From assembly GCA_035278165.1 (NCBI GenBank), contig DATEJG010000126.1:518-64517 (forward strand): a DNA stretch of 64,000 nucleotides. The letters run 5' to 3'. Under the pieces are notes generated by a model, which saw nothing but the letters and a program-made list of their open reading frames with translations, had not been told where the DNA came from and searched no databases. The DNA comes from Steroidobacteraceae bacterium. GTDB taxonomy: Bacteria > Pseudomonadota > Gammaproteobacteria > Steroidobacterales > Steroidobacteraceae. How positions within the stretch are numbered: the first letter of the stretch is position 1; each line of letters starts with the position of its first letter. Position numbers and translations under genes: made by a program. Of this stretch, positions 3 to 62,116 are shown piece after piece.

Positions 3-1187
3 CTGGAGATCTGCGCGCCGCTCGAGACGGAGGACTTCGTCGTGCAGAGCATGCCGGACACGAGCCCGGCGAAGTGGCACCTCGCGCACACGAGCTGGTT
101 CTTCGAGCAGTTCCTGCTGCAGCCGCTGCTCGCCGGGTACCGCGCGTTTCATCCTGATTTCGAATACCTGTTCAACTCCTACTACCAGTCGGTCGGCCGC
201 ATGCACGAGCGGCCGCAGCGCGGTCTGCTGACGCGCCCGACGGTGCAGGAGGTCATGAGCTACCGGCAGCACGTCGACGAGCACATGCAAAAGCTGCTGC
301 GCGCGCGCCCCGAGGACGAAACACTGTTGTCGGTCGGCACGCTGGGCCTCAATCACGAGCAGCAGCACCAGGAATTGATGCTGACGGACATCAAGCACCT
401 GTTCTCGCGCAATCCGCTGCTGCCGGCATATCGACCGGGCACGGACGATTCGAGCGACGCGGCGGCGCCGATGCACTTCATCGCGTTCGATGGCGGCGTG
501 CGCGAGATCGGCGCGACCGGGCAGCACTTCTGTTTCGACAACGAGCTGCCGCGGCATCGCACGCTCGTCGAGCCGTATGCGCTCGCCGATCGCCTCGCGA
601 CCAACGGCGAGTATCTCGAATTCATCCGCGACGGCGGCTATCGGCGTCCGGAGTTCTGGCTCTCCGACGGCTGGAGCACTGTCGGCCGCGAGGGCTGGAC
701 CCGGCCGATCTACTGGTCGGAGTCGCTCGACAGCGAATTCACGCTGCACGGCGTGCAGCCGCTGCAAGCCGGCGCGCCCGTGTGCCACGTCAGTTTCTAC
801 GAGGCCGACGCGTTCGCGCGCTGGGCCGGCGCACGCCTGCCGACCGAAGCCGAGTGGGAGCTCGCCGCCGAATCGCTGCCGGTGATCGGCAACCTGCTCA
901 ACACCGGGGCACTGCACCCGACCTCGAGCGGCGTGCAACCGGGGCTCAAGCAGATGTTCGGCGACGTGTGGGAATGGACCGCCTCGCCGTACATCGCGTA
1001 CCCGGGCTACCAGCCGACCGGCGGCGCGCTCGGCGAGTACAACGGCAAGTTCATGTGCAACCAGCTGGTGCTGCGCGGCGGCTCGTGTGTCACGCCCGCC
1101 GATCACATCCGCGCCAGCTACCGCAACTTCTTCTACGCAGACGCACGCTGGCAGTTCATGGGCGTGCGGCTCGCGCGCAATCTGTGA
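3..1187 (+). CDS. egtB: Ergothioneine biosynthesis sulfoxide synthase EgtB (5' truncated by window edge)
   Basis: Frame is open to the window start (LEICAPLETEDFVVQSMPD). DinB-like N-terminus SPAKWHLAHT, FNSYY loop, HEQQHQE iron motif, FGE-sulfatase C-terminus (GDVWEWT, RGGS). Adjacent to egtD. Confidence 0.93.
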   Translation: MEICAPLETEDFVVQSMPDTSPAKWHLAHTSWFFEQFLLQPLLAGYRAFHPDFEYLFNSYYQSVGRMHERPQRGLLTRPTVQEVMSYRQHVDEHMQKLLRARPEDETLLSVGTLGLNHEQQHQELMLTDIKHLFSRNPLLPAYRPGTDDSSDAAAPMHFIAFDGGVREIGATGQHFCFDNELPRHRTLVEPYALADRLATNGEYLEFIRDGGYRRPEFWLSDGWSTVGREGWTRPIYWSESLDSEFTLHGVQPLQAGAPVCHVSFYEADAFARWAGARLPTEAEWELAAESLPVIGNLLNTGALHPTSSGVQPGLKQMFGDVWEWTASPYIAYPGYQPTGGALGEYNGKFMCNQLVLRGGSCVTPADHIRASYRNFFYADARWQFMGVRLARNL

Positions 1188-1200
1188 CAAAGGAAGATCC

Positions 1201-2172
1201 ATGGCCAAGCATCCGAGCACGATCCCTGCCCCGTCGCGCACCGACGCACTCACCAACGGAGTGCTCGATGGCATGCGCAAGCAACCGCGCCAGCTCTCGC
1301 CGGTGTGGTTCTACGACGAGCTGGGCTCGTTCCTGTTCGACAGCATCTGCGAGCTGCCGGAGTACTACCTCACGCGCACCGAGCTGCAGATCATGCGCAC
1401 GTATGCTGCGGACATGGCGCATCACATCGGTCCGGACGCGGCGATCATCGAGCTCGGCAGCGGCACCAGCATGAAGACGCGCGAGCTGCTCAATCATCTC
1501 GACAAGGCGGCCGCGTATGTGCCCGTCGATATCGCGCGGGATCACCTGCTGACTGCCGCCAGCGCGATCTCGCGCGATTACCAGACGCTGCGCGTGATCC
1601 CGATCTGCGCGGATTTCACCCAGCCGTTCGACCTGCCGGTTTCCGTGTACGCAGCGCACCGCCGCGTGGTCTATTTCCCGGGATCGACGCTCGGCAACTT
1701 CGATCCGGAGCATGCGCTCAGCCTGCTGCAGCGGATGCGCCAGATCATCGGCAGCAACGGCGCGGTGCTGATCGGCATCGATCTCAAGAAGGACCCTCGC
1801 GTGCTGGAGCGTGCGTACAACGATCGCGCCGGCGTCACGGCGGAGTTCAACGTCAACGCGCTGCGGCACCTGAACCGCGAGCTCGGCACGGACTTCGATC
1901 TAGACGCGTTCGAGCACCAGGCGGTGTGGGTCGAGGACCTGAGCCGCGTCGAGATGCACCTGGTGAGCAAGCGCGAGCAGGAGGTGCACGTCGGCGAGGA
2001 GACCGTGCACATCGGCAAGGGCGAGCACCTGACGACCGAGTTCTGCCACAAGTACACGCTCGAGAGCTTCGCGGACCTCGCCGCCGCCGCCGGGCTGTCG
2101 GTCAGCCGCGTGTGGATGGATCCCGCGAAGCTGTTCAGCGTGCAGCTGCTGGAGCCGCGCTCCCTGCAGTAG
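1201..2172 (+). CDS. egtD: L-histidine N-alpha-methyltransferase EgtD
   Basis: FYDELGSFLFDSICELPEYYLTRTE, ELGSG SAM motif, FPGSTLGNF, AYND..GVTAEFN, TEFCHKY; purine-rich RBS before ATG 1201. Confidence 0.93.
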   Translation: MAKHPSTIPAPSRTDALTNGVLDGMRKQPRQLSPVWFYDELGSFLFDSICELPEYYLTRTELQIMRTYAADMAHHIGPDAAIIELGSGTSMKTRELLNHLDKAAAYVPVDIARDHLLTAASAISRDYQTLRVIPICADFTQPFDLPVSVYAAHRRVVYFPGSTLGNFDPEHALSLLQRMRQIIGSNGAVLIGIDLKKDPRVLERAYNDRAGVTAEFNVNALRHLNRELGTDFDLDAFEHQAVWVEDLSRVEMHLVSKREQEVHVGEETVHIGKGEHLTTEFCHKYTLESFADLAAAAGLSVSRVWMDPAKLFSVQLLEPRSLQ

Positions 2173-3764: not shown

Positions 3765-6437
3765 ATGACAACGAAGCTCGCCGAGCGCGCACGACTCGCG
3801 CGCTGCACGCCGCACGATCCCGCGTGGAAAAAGTGGGGCCCGTATCTCAGCGAGCGCCAGTGGGGCACCGTGCGCGAGGACTACAGCGCGAACGGCGACG
3901 TTTGGGGCTACTTTCCGCACGATCACGCGCGCAGCCGCGCGTACCGCTGGGGCGAGGACGGGCTCGCGGGCTTCTGCGACCACGAGCAGCGGCTGTGCCT
4001 GTCGCTGGCGCTGTGGAACGGCCGCGATCCGATCCTGAAGGAGCGGCTGTTCGGGCTCACCAACAGCGAGGGCAATCACGGCGAAGACGTCAAGGAGCTG
4101 TACTACTACCTCGACGCCACGCCGGCGCACTCGTATCTCAAGATGCTCTACAAGTATCCGCAGCGCGAGTATCCGTACGCCGCGCTCGTCGCGGAGAACG
4201 AGCGTCGCACGCGCGAGCAGACGGAGTACGAGCTGCTGGATACCGGCGTGTTCGCCGAGAACCGCTACTTCGACGTGTTCGTGGAGTACGCGCAGAACGA
4301 CATCGACGACGTGCTGATGCGTGTCACCGTGCACAACCGCGGGCCGGAGCGCGCAACGCTGCACGTGCTGCCGCAGCTGTTTTTCCGTAACACATGGAGT
4401 TGGCGCAACGGCGCAGCGAAGCCGCGCCTGTCGATGCAGGACGGGCACGTGCTCGTACATCACGACGTGCTCGGCGAATACCACTGGTACTCATGCGGCA
4501 CGCACGACGCCGACGTCCTGTTCACGGACAACGAGACCAACACGCAGCGTCTCTACGACATTGCGAACGCGGGCTACGTCAAAGACGCATTCCATGAGCG
4601 CGTCGTGCACGAGCGCATCGACGCGACCAATCCCGCGCAAACCGGTACGAAGGTCGCCGCGTGGTATCGCCTCGACGTGCCGGCCGGCGGCTCGGCGGAG
4701 ATCCGCACGCGACTTTCGAAGCAGCCGCAGCTGCAGCCGTTTGCGGAGCTCGCGGCAACGTTCGCCGCGCGCGTGCGCGAAGCGGATGAGTTCTACGAGG
4801 ACGTTCAGCACGATCTGCCCGACGCCGATCGGCGCCTGGTGCAGCGCCAGGCGTTCGCGGGAATGATCTGGAGCAAGCAGTTCTTCCACTTCGACGTGCC
4901 GCAGTGGCTGAAGGGCGACGAGACGCAGGTCGCGCCGCCGGCGAGCCGCAAGCACGGCCGCAACTGGGAATGGGAGCACCTCAACAATGCCGACATCATC
5001 TCGATGCCGGACAAGTGGGAGTACCCGTGGTACGCGTCATGGGATCTCGCGTTCCACACGCTGCCGCTGGCGCTGCTCGACGCCGAGTTCGCCAAGGAGC
5101 AGCTCGTGCTGCTGACGCGCGAGTGGTACATGCATCCGAACGGCCAGATTCCCGCGTACGAGTGGGCGTTCGGCGACGTGAATCCGCCGGTGCACGCGTG
5201 GGCGACCTGGCGCGTGTTCCAGATCGACCGCAAGCAGCGCGGCGACGACGGCGACCTGAAGTTCCTCGAGCGCGTGTTCCACAAGCTGCTGCTGAACTTC
5301 ACCTGGTGGGTGAATCGCAAGGACGCCGAAGGCCGCAACGTGTTCCAGGGCGGCTTTCTCGGGCTCGACAACATCGGTGTGTTCGATCGCAGCTCGACGC
5401 TGCCGAGCGGCGATCGCCTCGACCAGGCGGACGGCACCAGCTGGATGGCGATGTATGCGCTGAACCTGATGCGCATCGCGCTCGAGCTCGCCCGGCACAA
5501 CGACGTCTACGAGGACGTGGCCACCAAGTTCTTCGAGCACTTCCTGCACATCGCCGAGGCGATCAGCACCTTCGGCGAGGGCGACGTCGGGCTCTGGGAC
5601 GACGCGGACAAGTTCTTCTACGACGTGCTGCGCACGCCGGACGGCCGCAACACGCCGCTCAAGGTGCGCTCGATGATCGGGCTGATCCCGCTGTTCGCGG
5701 TCGAGACGCTCGAGCCCGAGCTGCTGGAGCGCGTGCCGGAATTCGCGGCGCGCCTCGAATGGTTTCTCAACTACCGGCCCGATCTCGCGCAGCTGGTCTC
5801 GCACTGGGATCAGCCGGGCCGCGGCAGGCGCCGCCTGCTGTCGCTGCTGCGCGGCCATCGCATGAAGAAGCTGCTGGTGCGCATGCTCGATCCGGCCGAG
5901 TTCCTCTCCGACTTCGGCGTGCGCGCGCTGTCCAAAGTGCACCAGCGCGAGCCGTACGTGCTGCGGGTGAACGGCTGCGATCTCACGGTGCGCTACGTCT
6001 CGGCGGAATCGGACTCGCCGCTGTTCGGCGGCAACTCCAACTGGCGCGGCCCGATCTGGTTCCCGGTGAACTTCCTGATCATCGAGTCGCTGCAGCGCTT
6101 CCATCACTACTACGGCGACGATTTCCTGGTCGAGTGCCCGACCGGCTCCGGCCAGCTGCGCACTCTCAACCAGATCGCCGACGAGCTCGCGACGCGCCTG
6201 GAACGCTTGTTTCTACGGGACGAGCGCGGGCTGCGGCCGGTGCACGGCCAGTATCCGCAGCAGCAGCGCGATCCGCATTTCCGCGACTACGTGCTCTTCT
6301 ACGAATACTTCTGCGGCGATACAGGTCGCGGCGTCGGCGCCGGACACCAGACCGGCTGGACGGGCCTGGTCGCGAAGCTGCTGAAACCGCGTGAAGCAGC
6401 TCACGGTGACCGCCGGCGCGCGCGACGCGGCGACTGA
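3765..6437 (+). CDS. MGH1-like glycoside hydrolase (GH63-like glucosidase)
   Basis: WKKWGPYLSERQWGTVREDYS, SMPDKWEYPWYASWDLAFH, GFLGLDNIG, NSNWRGPIWFP, GAGHQTGWT. Confidence 0.88.
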   Translation: MTTKLAERARLARCTPHDPAWKKWGPYLSERQWGTVREDYSANGDVWGYFPHDHARSRAYRWGEDGLAGFCDHEQRLCLSLALWNGRDPILKERLFGLTNSEGNHGEDVKELYYYLDATPAHSYLKMLYKYPQREYPYAALVAENERRTREQTEYELLDTGVFAENRYFDVFVEYAQNDIDDVLMRVTVHNRGPERATLHVLPQLFFRNTWSWRNGAAKPRLSMQDGHVLVHHDVLGEYHWYSCGTHDADVLFTDNETNTQRLYDIANAGYVKDAFHERVVHERIDATNPAQTGTKVAAWYRLDVPAGGSAEIRTRLSKQPQLQPFAELAATFAARVREADEFYEDVQHDLPDADRRLVQRQAFAGMIWSKQFFHFDVPQWLKGDETQVAPPASRKHGRNWEWEHLNNADIISMPDKWEYPWYASWDLAFHTLPLALLDAEFAKEQLVLLTREWYMHPNGQIPAYEWAFGDVNPPVHAWATWRVFQIDRKQRGDDGDLKFLERVFHKLLLNFTWWVNRKDAEGRNVFQGGFLGLDNIGVFDRSSTLPSGDRLDQADGTSWMAMYALNLMRIALELARHNDVYEDVATKFFEHFLHIAEAISTFGEGDVGLWDDADKFFYDVLRTPDGRNTPLKVRSMIGLIPLFAVETLEPELLERVPEFAARLEWFLNYRPDLAQLVSHWDQPGRGRRRLLSLLRGHRMKKLLVRMLDPAEFLSDFGVRALSKVHQREPYVLRVNGCDLTVRYVSAESDSPLFGGNSNWRGPIWFPVNFLIIESLQRFHHYYGDDFLVECPTGSGQLRTLNQIADELATRLERLFLRDERGLRPVHGQYPQQQRDPHFRDYVLFYEYFCGDTGRGVGAGHQTGWTGLVAKLLKPREAAHGDRRRARRGD

Positions 6438-6800: not shown

Positions 6801-7571
6801 TCACCAGATCTTCCACCACGGCTTCGCAGAGCCTTCGTGGCGCAGCTCCATGACGCGTCCCGTGTTGCCGTACGTCGACTGCGTGAACACCACGCGAATC
6901 TTCTCCCGCGCGTCCTGACCGATCGTGTCGCGATCCTTGATCACCGGGCCGTGCTCCAGCAGGTAGCGCGCCAGCTCCTGGAATCTCTCGCGCAGCTCGC
7001 TAGGCTTCTGCGGCCAGTCGTGCGCCTCCAGCTCCATGTGTCCCAGAGCTGCCATGCCGGTGGTGAAGCCGGCGCTGGTCTTGCCGGTGCGCCAGCCGAC
7101 GCGACAGTCCACCCAGATATCGAGCGGCGGCCCGTGCGGCAACATCTTCTCGGCGTATTCCACGAACAGCGCCTTCGGCACGAGCAGCGTCGCATTGCCC
7201 CAGTACACGCCGATGGCGTCGTCGCACGCTGCCAGCACAGCGGTGGTCGCCTGGGTCAACAGGATCGATTGCTCGACCTCCTTGCGACCGCTGAGCACGG
7301 TGACGATGAGATGCGCGCGATGCGTCTGCACCTCGTCCGATGCGTTCTGCCAGAGCACGCTGGTGGCGCACGGGCCTTCGAGGTCGGACCACGGGATCGG
7401 TGCGGGCATGCAGGCAACGACGATGTCGCCGTTGCTGACCTTGAACGATGCGCTGCCGCCTTCGTCCGAGGTGGTGCTGGGCGCGAGGTGCGGATAGCGC
7501 GTCCCCAGCTCCTGCTCGACACGGCGCGCTGGCGCGCCCGTCGCTTCGCGCAACAGCACCATCGAGATCAT
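6801..7571 (-). CDS. DUF4261-like domain protein with C-terminal KPWWKIW
   Basis: HRAHLIVTVL, GVYWGNATLL, FTTGMAALGHMELE, YLLEHGPVIKDRDTIG; ATG overlaps the upstream TGA (TGATG). Confidence 0.7.
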   Translation of the reverse strand: MISMVLLREATGAPARRVEQELGTRYPHLAPSTTSDEGGSASFKVSNGDIVVACMPAPIPWSDLEGPCATSVLWQNASDEVQTHRAHLIVTVLSGRKEVEQSILLTQATTAVLAACDDAIGVYWGNATLLVPKALFVEYAEKMLPHGPPLDIWVDCRVGWRTGKTSAGFTTGMAALGHMELEAHDWPQKPSELRERFQELARYLLEHGPVIKDRDTIGQDAREKIRVVFTQSTYGNTGRVMELRHEGSAKPWWKIW

Positions 7572-8701
7572 CAGGCTTGCAGCGGCGCCGTGTCGGCGTG
7601 CAGGAACCAGCGATTCAGCACTACGTTTCGCGTGAACCACTGCGTCTGCATCAGAGAGCGCGCGAGCGCGAGCTTCCAGGACTCCGGCAGCGAGCTCGCC
7701 AGCGACGCGCCGTTGTTGCGCACACCGAAGCGCGCCTGGAGCTGCCTTTCGTATTCGGCCAGGCGCTGCTTGCTGTAGTCGCCGCGCGCGTTCGCGACGA
7801 TGCGCGCTGCCATGAGCCCCGACTCGATCGCCGGCCGGATGCCCTCGCCGCTCTCCGGATACGCAAGACCGGCCGCATCGCCGATGATCAGCACGCCATC
7901 GCCGACGACGGGCCGCTTCGCGTGCGAGTACAGCAGGTACGCGTGGCCCTTGAAGCGCGCGGGCGCATCGGCCGGCACTTTGCCCTGCGACTGCAGCCAG
8001 CGGCTGAACGCATGCACCTGCTCGGCCAGGCCCTTGTTGCCTTCGCGACCGAGGCCGACGTTGAGGAAGTTGCCCTTGCGGAAGCACCAGCCGTAGCCCT
8101 TCAGATCGTCGCAGAAGTACAGCTCCGGCCGGTCGTGCTCGACGCCGCAGCGCTGTGCCTGGGCGTCGCTCATCTCGAACTCGATCTCCTGCGCGCAGAT
8201 CGCGCGCTCGTCCTTGCCGAGATTCGCGCCGAGGAAGCGCACTACCGGGCAGAAGTGCCCGCCCGCGCCGATCACCAGCGCTGCATCGATGGCGCCGTTC
8301 ACGAGCCAGCGGCCGTCGCTACGCTCCATCGATTCCCACGCTTCGCCCAGCCGCAGCCGCGCACCGCAGCGCTGCAGGAGATAATTGTCGAACTCGCAGC
8401 GGCGGATGCCGTAGCTCACGGTCTTCCGGTAGTGCACGGGCTTCGCGGCGCGCTCGCCCATGCCGGTGATGAAGCTCGTGATCGGTTGCAGCACGCAGCT
8501 GCGAGCGTAGTCCCGCGTGTCGATCTGCAGCTCATCGACGACCTGCGGCGTAATCCAGCCCGCGCACACCTTGTCGCGGGGGAACTCGCTCTTGTCGAGG
8601 ATCAGCACGTCGAGACCGGCGCGCCGCAGCTCGCGGGCACACGAGGATCCGGCCGGCCCGCCGCCGACGATCAGCACGTCGCAGGTTTCGTGCGTGCTCA
8701 T
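7571..8701 (-). CDS. FAD-dependent oxidoreductase, geranylgeranyl reductase family
   Basis: DVLIVGGGPAGSSCA, FPRDKVCAG, GYGWCF, IGDAAGLAYPESGEGIRPAIESG. Confidence 0.88.
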   Translation of the reverse strand: MSTHETCDVLIVGGGPAGSSCARELRRAGLDVLILDKSEFPRDKVCAGWITPQVVDELQIDTRDYARSCVLQPITSFITGMGERAAKPVHYRKTVSYGIRRCEFDNYLLQRCGARLRLGEAWESMERSDGRWLVNGAIDAALVIGAGGHFCPVVRFLGANLGKDERAICAQEIEFEMSDAQAQRCGVEHDRPELYFCDDLKGYGWCFRKGNFLNVGLGREGNKGLAEQVHAFSRWLQSQGKVPADAPARFKGHAYLLYSHAKRPVVGDGVLIIGDAAGLAYPESGEGIRPAIESGLMAARIVANARGDYSKQRLAEYERQLQARFGVRNNGASLASSLPESWKLALARSLMQTQWFTRNVVLNRWFLHADTAPLQA

Positions 8702-8708
8702 CGGCCCG

Positions 8709-9989
8709 TCATCGCTGATAGATGTCGCTGCGCGTCCAGGGAATCTGGTTGTTGCGACCCGGCGCGAACACCACCTGGAACAGCTGCAGCTCGCCGGTCG
8801 TGAACGCGGCCTGCGAGCCGAGCAGGTACAGGCGCCACATGCGCACGAAGCGCTCGTCGAACATCTTCGTCACCCGATCCACGGCGCTCTCGTACAGGCC
8901 ATGCCACCACTCGAGCGTCTTCGCGTAATGCAGCCGGATGTTCTCGACGTCCAGCACCGAGAAGTTGCAGCCCTCGAAGATGTCCATCATCTCCCGCAGC
9001 GAGGGCGGCTGCGCGCCGGGGAAGATGCGCCGGTCGATCCAGCGGTGCATCTGCTTGGCGCGGTTACGGCCGATCGAGTGAATCAGGCCGAGGCCGGTCT
9101 GCTTGAGCGAGCCCAGCACGACGCGCCCGAGCTCCGGATAGTGCTCGACGCCGACGTGCTCCAGCATGCCGACCGAGACGAACTTGTCGTACTGGCCGCT
9201 GATGTTGCGATAATCGTCCTCGACGAACTCGACCTCGTTGCTCAGGCCCTGCTCCCTGGCGCGCTCGCGCGCATACGCGATCTGCTCGCGCGAAATGTTG
9301 AACGCACGCACCTTCACGCCGTAATGGCGCGCCATGTGCAGCGCCAGCGCGCCCCAGCCGCAACCCGCTTCGACCACGCGCTCGCCGCGATTCAGCCGCA
9401 CCTTGCGCGACACGTGATCCATCTTCGCGATCTGCGCCTGGTCGAGCGTCGCCGACGGCGTCGGGAAGTAGGCGCACGTGTACGCCATCGTCCGGCCGAG
9501 CCACAGCGAGTAGAACTCGTTGCCGATGTCGTAGTGATGGTGAATGTTCTCGCGCGAGCCGGTCAGCGTGTTGCGCGCTCGCCGATGGCGCCATTGAGCC
9601 AGGCGGCGGCGCAACGAGATCGGCGTGTCGGCCTGCGCTGCACCGAGATACAGCTCCTCGATCATGCGCAGGATGCTGCCTTCGACGTCGATCTTGCCGG
9701 CGCTGTACAGCTCGCCGAACTGCAGGTCCGGGTCCGTGCACAGGCGCAGCAGGGTGCGGCGGTCGCCGATGTGCAGCGTCGCGACGGGCGCCGAGCCGAG
9801 CGGCGCGATCCGCTCGCCGTTCCACAGCGCGAAGGCGATCGGCGGGTTGCCGAAGGCATGCAGCAGCGTGCGGATCAGCCGCGTTTCCAGCGAGTAGCGC
9901 GCGTCGTCGGCCACCGCAGGCTGCGGCTCGTACGTGGGCTCACGTATGGGCGGAGCCGGCGTCGGTCGACCTTCATTCGCCGTCTGCAC
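8709..9989 (-). CDS. Cyclopropane-fatty-acyl-phospholipid synthase family SAM methyltransferase
   Basis: NIHHHYDIGNEFY, MAYTCAYF, EAGCGWG, SVGMLEHVG, IFPG, HYAKTL. Confidence 0.9.
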   Translation of the reverse strand: MQTANEGRPTPAPPIREPTYEPQPAVADDARYSLETRLIRTLLHAFGNPPIAFALWNGERIAPLGSAPVATLHIGDRRTLLRLCTDPDLQFGELYSAGKIDVEGSILRMIEELYLGAAQADTPISLRRRLAQWRHRRARNTLTGSRENIHHHYDIGNEFYSLWLGRTMAYTCAYFPTPSATLDQAQIAKMDHVSRKVRLNRGERVVEAGCGWGALALHMARHYGVKVRAFNISREQIAYARERAREQGLSNEVEFVEDDYRNISGQYDKFVSVGMLEHVGVEHYPELGRVVLGSLKQTGLGLIHSIGRNRAKQMHRWIDRRIFPGAQPPSLREMMDIFEGCNFSVLDVENIRLHYAKTLEWWHGLYESAVDRVTKMFDERFVRMWRLYLLGSQAAFTTGELQLFQVVFAPGRNNQIPWTRSDIYQR

Positions 9990-10101
9990 GGGTCTGCTCC
10001 CCTTGAAGCTGCGAAAGCGCTCGATTGTAGGGGTTGTACCGGCCGGGCGGAATATCGATCATCATCGTCGGTAACGTCCTGCTCTCCATAAAGGTCCTGG
10101 C

Positions 10102-60731: not shown

Positions 60732-61910
60732 TCAGGCGGGCTGCATCGCGTAGCCGCGCAGCGAGGCCGCGAAATCCTGCAGCACCTTGATGCGGCTCTC
60801 TTCTGCCTGAGCAATCCAGTCCTTCAGGTGCTGCACGAGCTTTTCGTTGCTCATGTTCGCGCCGCTCCACATCTGGCGCAGACGTTCCCGGAACTCGTGC
60901 ACGGTGTGCAACGACGCGTTCGAAGCGAGCACTTCGCGCAGATGCGACTGCGCAGTCGTGTCCAGCAGCACCGGCTCGCGCACCAGGAGCTTGCGCACAC
61001 GCCGGCTCAGCTTGCTGCCCGCGATGCTCAACTCGGCACGGAACACCGGCAGCGTCACGTGGCGCGTGTAATCGCGCAGCACGTGCATGCGATTGACGAT
61101 CACGGCGCGCACTGTTTCCAGGTCGATGTGATTGCGCGGCGCGACGCGCGCCGGTGCCGGCGCGACACGGATGACCTTGGCGAGACCCAGCATCTGGAAC
61201 ATGCGGATGTAGAGCCAGCCGATGTCGAACTCCCAGCGATAGATCGAGAACTTCGCCGAGCTCGGGAAGGCGTGGTGATTGTTGTGCAGCTCCTCGCCGG
61301 CGACGAGGAAGGCCCACGGCACGATGTTGCGCGCGGCGTCCGGGCACTCGAAGTTGCGGTAGCCGTAGTAGTGGCCGATGCCGTTGATCACGCCCGCGGC
61401 CATCACGGGGTTTGCCATCATCTGCACGGCGAACACGATGATGCCGGGAATGCCGAACAACAGCAGGTCGATGAAGAACAGCAGCGTGATGCCGCCGTTG
61501 CGGTAGCGCGAATAGACGTTGCGCTCCATCCAGTCGTTGGGCGCGCCGCGACCGAACTTCTCCTGCGTCTCCGGATTGCGCGCCTGCACCTGGTACAGCT
61601 CGGCGCCTTCGAGCAGCACCTTCTTCAATCCGAAGATGACGGGGCTGTGCGGATCGTCCGGCGTCTCGCAGCGGGCGTGATGCTTGCGGTGAACCGCCAC
61701 CCATTCCTTGGTGACGATGCCCGAGGTCAGCCACAGCCAGAAGCGGAACACGTGGCGCAGCGCCGGGTGGAGATCGTGGCTGCGATGGGTGGCGTCGCGG
61801 TGCAGGTAGAGGGTGACGCCCATGAAGGTGAACTGCACCATCAGGAACGTCACGACGACGTACGACCAGAAGTTAAGGTTCAGAATTCCATAGAGAAATT
61901 CGAGGTTCAC
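60732..61910 (-). CDS. Delta-9-type acyl-lipid/acyl-CoA desaturase with C-terminal extension
   Basis: His boxes HRDATH, HRKHH, HNNHH; DDPHSP; GEELHNN; WEFDIGW. Confidence 0.9.
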   Translation of the reverse strand: MNLEFLYGILNLNFWSYVVVTFLMVQFTFMGVTLYLHRDATHRSHDLHPALRHVFRFWLWLTSGIVTKEWVAVHRKHHARCETPDDPHSPVIFGLKKVLLEGAELYQVQARNPETQEKFGRGAPNDWMERNVYSRYRNGGITLLFFIDLLLFGIPGIIVFAVQMMANPVMAAGVINGIGHYYGYRNFECPDAARNIVPWAFLVAGEELHNNHHAFPSSAKFSIYRWEFDIGWLYIRMFQMLGLAKVIRVAPAPARVAPRNHIDLETVRAVIVNRMHVLRDYTRHVTLPVFRAELSIAGSKLSRRVRKLLVREPVLLDTTAQSHLREVLASNASLHTVHEFRERLRQMWSGANMSNEKLVQHLKDWIAQAEESRIKVLQDFAASLRGYAMQPA

Positions 61911-62116
61911 TGCGGGGTACCTGCGGGCCCTGCCGGGCGACGTTTTAGATTACGGAAAATTAAGGCCGGGCGACTATAGCGGAGGCCCCCGGTGACCACA
62001 AATGAGCAAATCCCTGCTCCCCGCAACGGTCGTGACCTGCGGCCCGCGACGGTGGTGGATACTGTGATGGCGATCTCATCAGTATCAATGCGCCGCTGAC
62101 GATTCAGGTCCTCCCC

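Follow-up and report, generated by a model that had tools for sequence, protein, structure and literature searches.

A tmpBA-type gene pair in a Steroidobacteraceae genome and its likely role in mid-chain methyl branching of fatty acids

Introduction

Mid-chain methyl-branched fatty acids are used as phospholipid fatty acid (PLFA) markers for sulfate reducers and actinomycetes. Here we analyze two adjacent genes on a 64,000-nucleotide stretch of a Steroidobacteraceae genome (assembly GCA_035278165.1, contig DATEJG010000126.1, positions 518 to 64,517; the whole stretch is called the window below). They encode a Cfa-family S-adenosylmethionine (SAM)-dependent lipid methyltransferase and a flavin adenine dinucleotide (FAD) flavoprotein of the geranylgeranyl reductase (GGR) family. 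Judging from sequence comparisons, the pair very probably belongs to the tmpBA kind of operon, in its Marinobacter/Thiohalospira ‘long TmpA’ form.

The tmpBA (ten-methyl-palmitate) operon was described from the Desulfobacter group, Marinobacter hydrocarbonoclasticus and Thiohalospira halophila (Blitzblau et al. 2021; PMC7791843), and the organisms used to define it make saturated 10-methyl-16:0, according to the tables of that paper. In both E. coli and yeast, the Cfa-like TmpB formed 10-methylene fatty acids, and four of the five tmp operons tested gave 10-methylene-16:0 in E. coli. Chains of C14-C18 with the double bond at delta-9, delta-10 or delta-11 served as substrates for the Marinobacter and Thiohalospira enzymes, and their products were methylene, not cyclopropane, fatty acids (PMC7791843). 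TmpA resembles archaeal GGRs and is presumed to be the reductase, with its mechanism stated as unknown (PMC7791843); our literature search found no publications on TmpA after 2021.

The same two-step chemistry, Cfa-like methylenation followed by reduction by a flavoprotein, is proposed for the bfaAB/tms operon of Actinobacteria, which yields tuberculostearic acid (Machida 2017, Blitzblau 2021). BfaB and TmpB share about 31% identity, while BfaA belongs to a different flavoprotein family that, by the paper's account, has no meaningful homology to TmpA (PMC7791843). The gene order is also reversed there (A then B). The window pair has the order B then A and a GGR-family partner, and so shows neither the gene order nor the BfaA-type partner of bfaAB/tms, the partner being set apart by the paper's description of BfaA.

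The gene pair and its relation to published tmpBA operons

Both genes lie on the minus strand. The tmpB-type gene (8709..9989) starts with GTG and encodes 426 amino acids with a strong match to the CMAS domain (PF02353, 1.3e-83); a ribosome-binding site, GGGGAG (9997..10002), is located 7 nt 5' of the start codon. A spacer of 7 bp (cgggccg, 8702..8708) separates its stop codon from the ATG start of the tmpA-type gene (7571..8701), which encodes a flavoprotein of 376 amino acids recognized by the GGR family model TIGR02032. The two genes form a single transcription unit. The earlier note on this DNA had reported a Cfa-family SAM methyltransferase followed, after a 7-bp gap, by an FAD reductase, and our analysis reproduced the coordinates and both family assignments. 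It had also mentioned proteobacterial versions of the pathway that use a GGR-family reductase, which matches the published tmpBA operon (PMC7791843).

As a stand-in for the published TmpA and TmpB sequences we used short diagnostic peptides together with a Marinobacter locus (L125), the peptides of which are identical to MARHY3375/3376 in three cases (25/25, 20/20 and 21/21 residues) and match at 13/15 residues in a fourth. Over nearly their full lengths, the window methyltransferase and flavoprotein are 53.4% and 53.9% identical, respectively, to the L125 proteins, and they are similar in length to the L125 ORFs (open reading frames; 426 vs. 437 amino acids for the methyltransferase, 376 vs. 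374 for the flavoprotein). The flavoprotein is present in 113 of the 121 Marinobacter-genus genomes searched. The window pair shares the B-then-A gene order and both protein families with the gammaproteobacterial operons (MARHY3375/3376; T. halophila SAMN05660831_00818/00819), and with Marinobacter it also shares a methyltransferase clade and the motifs of the long TmpA; two diagnostic motifs of the window flavoprotein agree with those of the Marinobacter type (18/21 and 19/22 positions). It differs from them in its host family (Steroidobacteraceae, of high G+C; the window has about 67%), to which protein names, from soil-type MAG (metagenome-assembled genome) records, and the nearest loci also assign the host, and in its 7-bp spacer, whereas the genes overlap in many loci; the host genome has one true Cfa homologue, whereas the published tmpBA hosts have two.

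The Desulfobacter-type operons (D. curvatus, D. postgatei, Desulfobacula toluolica) follow the same two-gene logic. The window TmpA, however, is the long form, which is only 35-39% identical to the short forms found in the window's own family (see below), and Desulfobacter TmpB, going by the supplement text of the tmpBA paper, looks more similar to E. coli Cfa and seems to be without the long N-terminal stretch.

Conservation of the pairing and phylogeny

Species-representative genomes were scanned with an alignment of the flavoprotein subfamily, which gave at least 594 loci, and the best 80 were examined. Represented among them are Steroidobacteraceae, Gallionellaceae, Burkholderiales, Marinobacter, Thiohalophilus, Planctomycetota, Nitrospirota, Binatota and other groups. 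In 78 of the 79 testable loci, which span Pseudomonadota and several other phyla, the gene immediately upstream, in the same orientation, is a Cfa-family gene with 47-87% identity to that of the window. One of the 80 (L028) has no upstream DNA to test, and in another (L071) the only such gene upstream is a CMAS gene of 30% identity. Since the 79 loci were fetched by the flavoprotein alone, this adjacency is not due to chance. The distance between the two genes is mostly between -32 and +36 bp, with overlaps of 4 bp and 14 bp being the commonest arrangements.

All 78 flavoprotein-partnered methyltransferases, including those of the window and Marinobacter, are recovered in one clade in a maximum likelihood tree (IQ-TREE, LG+G4, quick search) with a support of 99 (SH-aLRT, the Shimodaira-Hasegawa-like approximate likelihood ratio test). 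Outside this clade are E. coli Cfa and five Cfa-family genes that have no flavoprotein partner and derive from Marinobacter sp. QJJ-212, M. lipolyticus and Steroidobacter agaridevorans. As regards the Cfa part of the tree that the earlier note had proposed as a check, the window methyltransferase groups with Marinobacter TmpB and outside E. coli Cfa.

When all ORFs of the 80 loci and the window were clustered, nothing beyond the pair itself was widely shared. The next most frequent neighbors among the 80 loci are a class-I methyltransferase (11), a response regulator (9) and a PEBP protein (7). One locus from a long-read MAG has a 793-amino acid frame (L020:3738-6116) that resembles a natural TmpB-TmpA fusion; we rejected it because of a frameshift near position 4855, with the last 45 residues of the methyltransferase read in another frame.

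Features of the methyltransferase

The methyltransferase has an N-terminal DUF7884 region (residues 40-115) and a CMAS catalytic domain (residues 145-406) in Pfam searches. It aligns with the solved phospholipid cyclopropane fatty acid (CFA) synthases 5z9o and 7qos from residue 48 or 73 to near the C-terminus, which takes in most of the DUF7884 region. The fold family, the SAM site and the bicarbonate ligands are those of E. coli Cfa (PDB 6bqc, 5z9o, 7qos), with residues C172, E277, H304, I306 and Y355 aligning with C139, E239, H266, I268 and Y317 of the E. coli enzyme. The window protein is, however, about 38% identical to E. coli Cfa, falls in a separate clade and misses all three NCBIfam equivalogs for canonical CFA synthases (bits/cut-off for NF008686, 280.3/400; NF040703, 294.2/650; NF053839, 323.8/600), and its expected product is an exomethylene rather than a ring.

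Eight positions (W163, A208, N231, F270, L276, R352, S392 and G399) show almost no variation within the partnered clade and are occupied by other residues in all six canonical Cfa sequences. Two of them adjoin bicarbonate ligands (L276 next to E277, and R352 near Y355). Because the outgroup is small, these positions are to be taken as leads only.

Features of the flavoprotein

The flavoprotein scores 166.2 bits against the ‘geranylgeranyl reductase family’ model TIGR02032, above its cut-off of 158.8, and also matches FAD_binding_3, while the models for specific isoprenoid reductases are missed (bits/cut-off for BchP/ChlP, 107/343; MenJ, 79/700; digeranylgeranylglycerophospholipid reductase, 68/580). 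Its AlphaFold model (pLDDT 95.3) is most similar in the PDB to the T. acidophilum GGR-like protein 3oz2 (TM score 0.76, E 3.4e-26); the next matches are FixC, flavin monooxygenases and halogenases, and the Sulfolobus GGR. The subfamily is narrowly bounded: 335 of 1.84 billion cluster representatives are found at E <= 1e-30, whereas the superfamily as a whole has about 17,000 at E <= 0.001.

The GxGxxG and GD motifs and Cys46 are invariant across 38 diverse subfamily members, and Cys46 aligns with the cysteine in the ‘RCGEG’ stretch of 3oz2. The aligned cysteine presumably takes part in catalysis by GGRs. The window protein is like the archaeal GGRs (T. acidophilum 3oz2; S. acidocaldarius 3atq/4opc) in fold, FAD motifs, this cysteine and the GD motif, but it is only about 24% identical to them, has YGWCFR in place of the YxWxFP motif, and its proposed substrate is an acyl exomethylene group.

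Two forms of TmpA in the window's family

The long flavoprotein (about 375 amino acids) occurs in 12 of 151 genomes (5 of 40 genera) from the GTDB family to which the window belongs, and a methyltransferase 48-71% identical to that of the window occurs in about 50. Widespread unpartnered methyltransferases in this family were considered and rejected: in 19 of 20 further family loci that we fetched (L127-L146), a short GGR-family gene is located directly downstream, 5-39 bp away, and only in L131 does no GGR-family gene adjoin the methyltransferase. The short flavoproteins have 324-340 amino acids and are 35-39% identical to the window TmpA over residues 5-305. At the two diagnostic motifs, eight that were checked match Desulfobacter TmpA at 14-17 of 21 positions, as compared to 6-7 of 21 for Marinobacter TmpA, the opposite of what is seen in the window protein. 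The methyltransferases of the family form one clade in a second tree (support 97), within which those with short partners form one subclade (support 96). Taken with the short partners in 19 of the 20 loci, this indicates a single methyltransferase lineage with two diverged forms of TmpA.

Proposed pathway and alternative explanations

Gene order, 53-54% identity, phylogeny and motifs all place the window pair with tmpBA, which makes mid-chain methyl branching the best reading of its function; by analogy with the published operons, the pair most likely places a mid-chain methyl branch in membrane fatty acids. The earlier note had favored such a product over a cyclopropane lipid, and the published TmpB assays of orthologues give this preference its basis. 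The double bond of the substrate would be introduced by the single DesA-family desaturase of the genome, and TmpB, as shown for its orthologues, would convert the unsaturated chain to an exomethylene intermediate. TmpA would then use FAD to reduce this exomethylene group to methyl, with 10-methyl-16:0 as the product and Cys46 perhaps supplying a proton by analogy with what we take to be its role in GGRs; this reduction is a step so far inferred in every organism. For the window protein, we infer a reductase role from family, fold and near-universal pairing. The whole pathway as proposed, up to 10-methyl-16:0, is in our judgment likely.

Several observations weigh against it. In E. coli and in yeast, TmpA formed no 10-methyl product with any of the operons tested (PMC7791843), which leaves gene context and family as the grounds for the reductase role, and no conserved neighbor that could serve as electron donor (ferredoxin, electron transfer flavoprotein) was found in the 80 loci and the window. 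The methyltransferase retains all five bicarbonate-site residues of cyclopropane synthases, so that ring closure and exomethylene release are not separable by sequence alone; the same residues are reported in TmpB and BfaB (PMC7791843) and therefore do not discriminate between the two outcomes. The tree outgroup is small (six canonical Cfa sequences), and the MIDI summed feature 9 reported for a relative of the host (see below) is ambiguous.

Some of these points would fit an ordinary cyclopropane fatty acid synthase next to a flavoprotein with an unrelated job, e.g., saturating a polyprenyl or quinone side chain. The CMAS domain and the bicarbonate ligands are as in E. coli Cfa, the methyltransferase gene is the only true Cfa/CMAS homologue in the host genome, and TmpA was inactive in heterologous hosts. 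We nevertheless regard this as very unlikely: the canonical equivalogs are missed by wide margins, the protein is in the clade of Marinobacter TmpB and outside E. coli Cfa, the assayed Marinobacter and Thiohalospira enzymes of this type released methylene products, and the constancy with which a GGR-family gene accompanies it across phyla, nearly everywhere and often with the two genes overlapping, suggests that both act in one pathway. An isoprenoid substrate, with the pair methylating and then saturating a double bond in a polyprenyl, quinone or carotenoid, is more improbable still and has hardly any claim on our belief. The known substrates of the GGR family are indeed isoprenoids, as indicated by the names of the family and by entries 3oz2 and 4opc, but the methyltransferase aligns with phospholipid CFA synthases, including most of the DUF7884 region, and no conserved isoprenoid genes were found near the pair in the 80 loci and the window.

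Another possibility accepts the methylene or methyl lipid but has TmpA isomerize or desaturate it, with the true reductase encoded elsewhere. Furan fatty acids are made by UfaM and then UfaD, which would provide an analogy for such a role, and both the lack of TmpA activity in five operons and the lack of a conserved electron-donor gene nearby would be in line with it. To our knowledge, however, all characterized members of the GGR family are reductases, and TmpA passes the family model, has the GGR fold and keeps the conserved cysteine. The organisms defining tmpBA make a saturated product (PMC7791843), and two diverged forms of TmpA have both stayed paired with TmpB. We therefore consider a role other than reduction unlikely. 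A combined proposal, namely that TmpA either depends on an electron donor missing from E. coli and yeast or transforms the methylene lipid differently, and that mid-chain methyl markers have a wider lineage origin, is tentative and, as a whole, rather doubtful.

Host lipid context

A DesA-family fatty acid desaturase with three His boxes is encoded at 60732..61910 (minus strand; NF049918 equivalog, 542.7 bits, cut-off 400). The host genome, which is rated 100% complete, has one DesA and one FabZ-like gene, and the FabA equivalog (TIGR01749) was not found in it. DesA could therefore plausibly be the only enzyme that introduces the delta-9 double bond, and the host may rely on oxygen-requiring desaturation alone for its unsaturated fatty acids, since no FabA equivalog was found. 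Going by gene content, the desaturase probably supplies the monounsaturated acyl substrate of TmpB. A delta-9-type desaturase at this position had been suggested earlier as a source of substrate; its DesA-family membership holds and the supply of substrate is reasonable, but the gene is unlinked, 51 kb from the pair and outside the operon.

The C-terminal region of the desaturase (residues 282-401, in the frame at 60732-61949, minus strand) resembles ISL3 transposases. A transposase chimera or insertion was rejected as an explanation, as this tail is catalogued as a feature of DesA (NCBIfam NF049919, ‘DesA/ISL3 alpha bundle tail’). The NF049919 domain occurs both in a family of lipid desaturases and in one of transposases.

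The pair is present in Steroidobacter agaridevorans (locus L008), and the fatty acids of this species include 7.6-11.3% of MIDI summed feature 9, i.e., iso-17:1w9c and/or 10-methyl-16:0 (PMC7966939). The pair was also found in three Nitrospirota MAGs (L040, L057 and L063). For Nitrospira moscoviensis, 11-methyl-hexadecanoic acid has been reported (PMC5516240, citing Lipski 2001). By analogy, tmpBA could be the basis of this Nitrospira marker, with TmpB taking delta-11 substrates.

Significance

The pairing itself is not new, and because this operon type is published and common, the window copy alone adds little. It does offer another TmpA, from an aerobic-type host, for work on the reductase half of the pathway, and the presence of one methyltransferase lineage with two diverged GGR-family partners in a single family is a natural experiment on what TmpA needs. 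The pair occurs in many lineages from soil and freshwater, a distribution that matters for 10-methyl-16:0 as a taxon marker and for summed feature 9, the ambiguous entry in the fatty acid data of Steroidobacter. Under the combined proposal considered above, mid-chain methyl markers would come from many more lineages than assumed (Steroidobacteraceae, Gallionellaceae, Burkholderiales, Planctomycetota, Nitrospirota), and the exchange of long and short TmpA on one methyltransferase lineage would mark two functionally distinct reductase solutions.

Neighboring genes and minor observations

The upstream neighbor of tmpB is a divergent M20 peptidase gene. Consensus scans for a sigma-70-like promoter, and for terminators, gave nothing useful at the pair. 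A DUF4261 gene (about 6801-7520, minus strand) lies about 50 bp downstream of tmpA with no terminator predicted between them; we rejected it as a member of the operon, as it is present in none of the 80 related loci, relatives with 88-91% identity included.

A small class-I SAM methyltransferase gene (Methyltransf_11) is found at L016:2968-3633 and in 10 other loci, Gallionellaceae MAGs included, and sits upstream of tmpB in L016, the example examined. A gene of the PEBP (phosphatidylethanolamine-binding) family occurs near the pair in 7 of the 80 loci. Elsewhere in the window, and unrelated to the pair, an ORF at 886-2172 (plus strand) belongs to the histidine-specific SAM methyltransferase family (Methyltransf_33, 2.7e-107), which we take to be EgtD-like.

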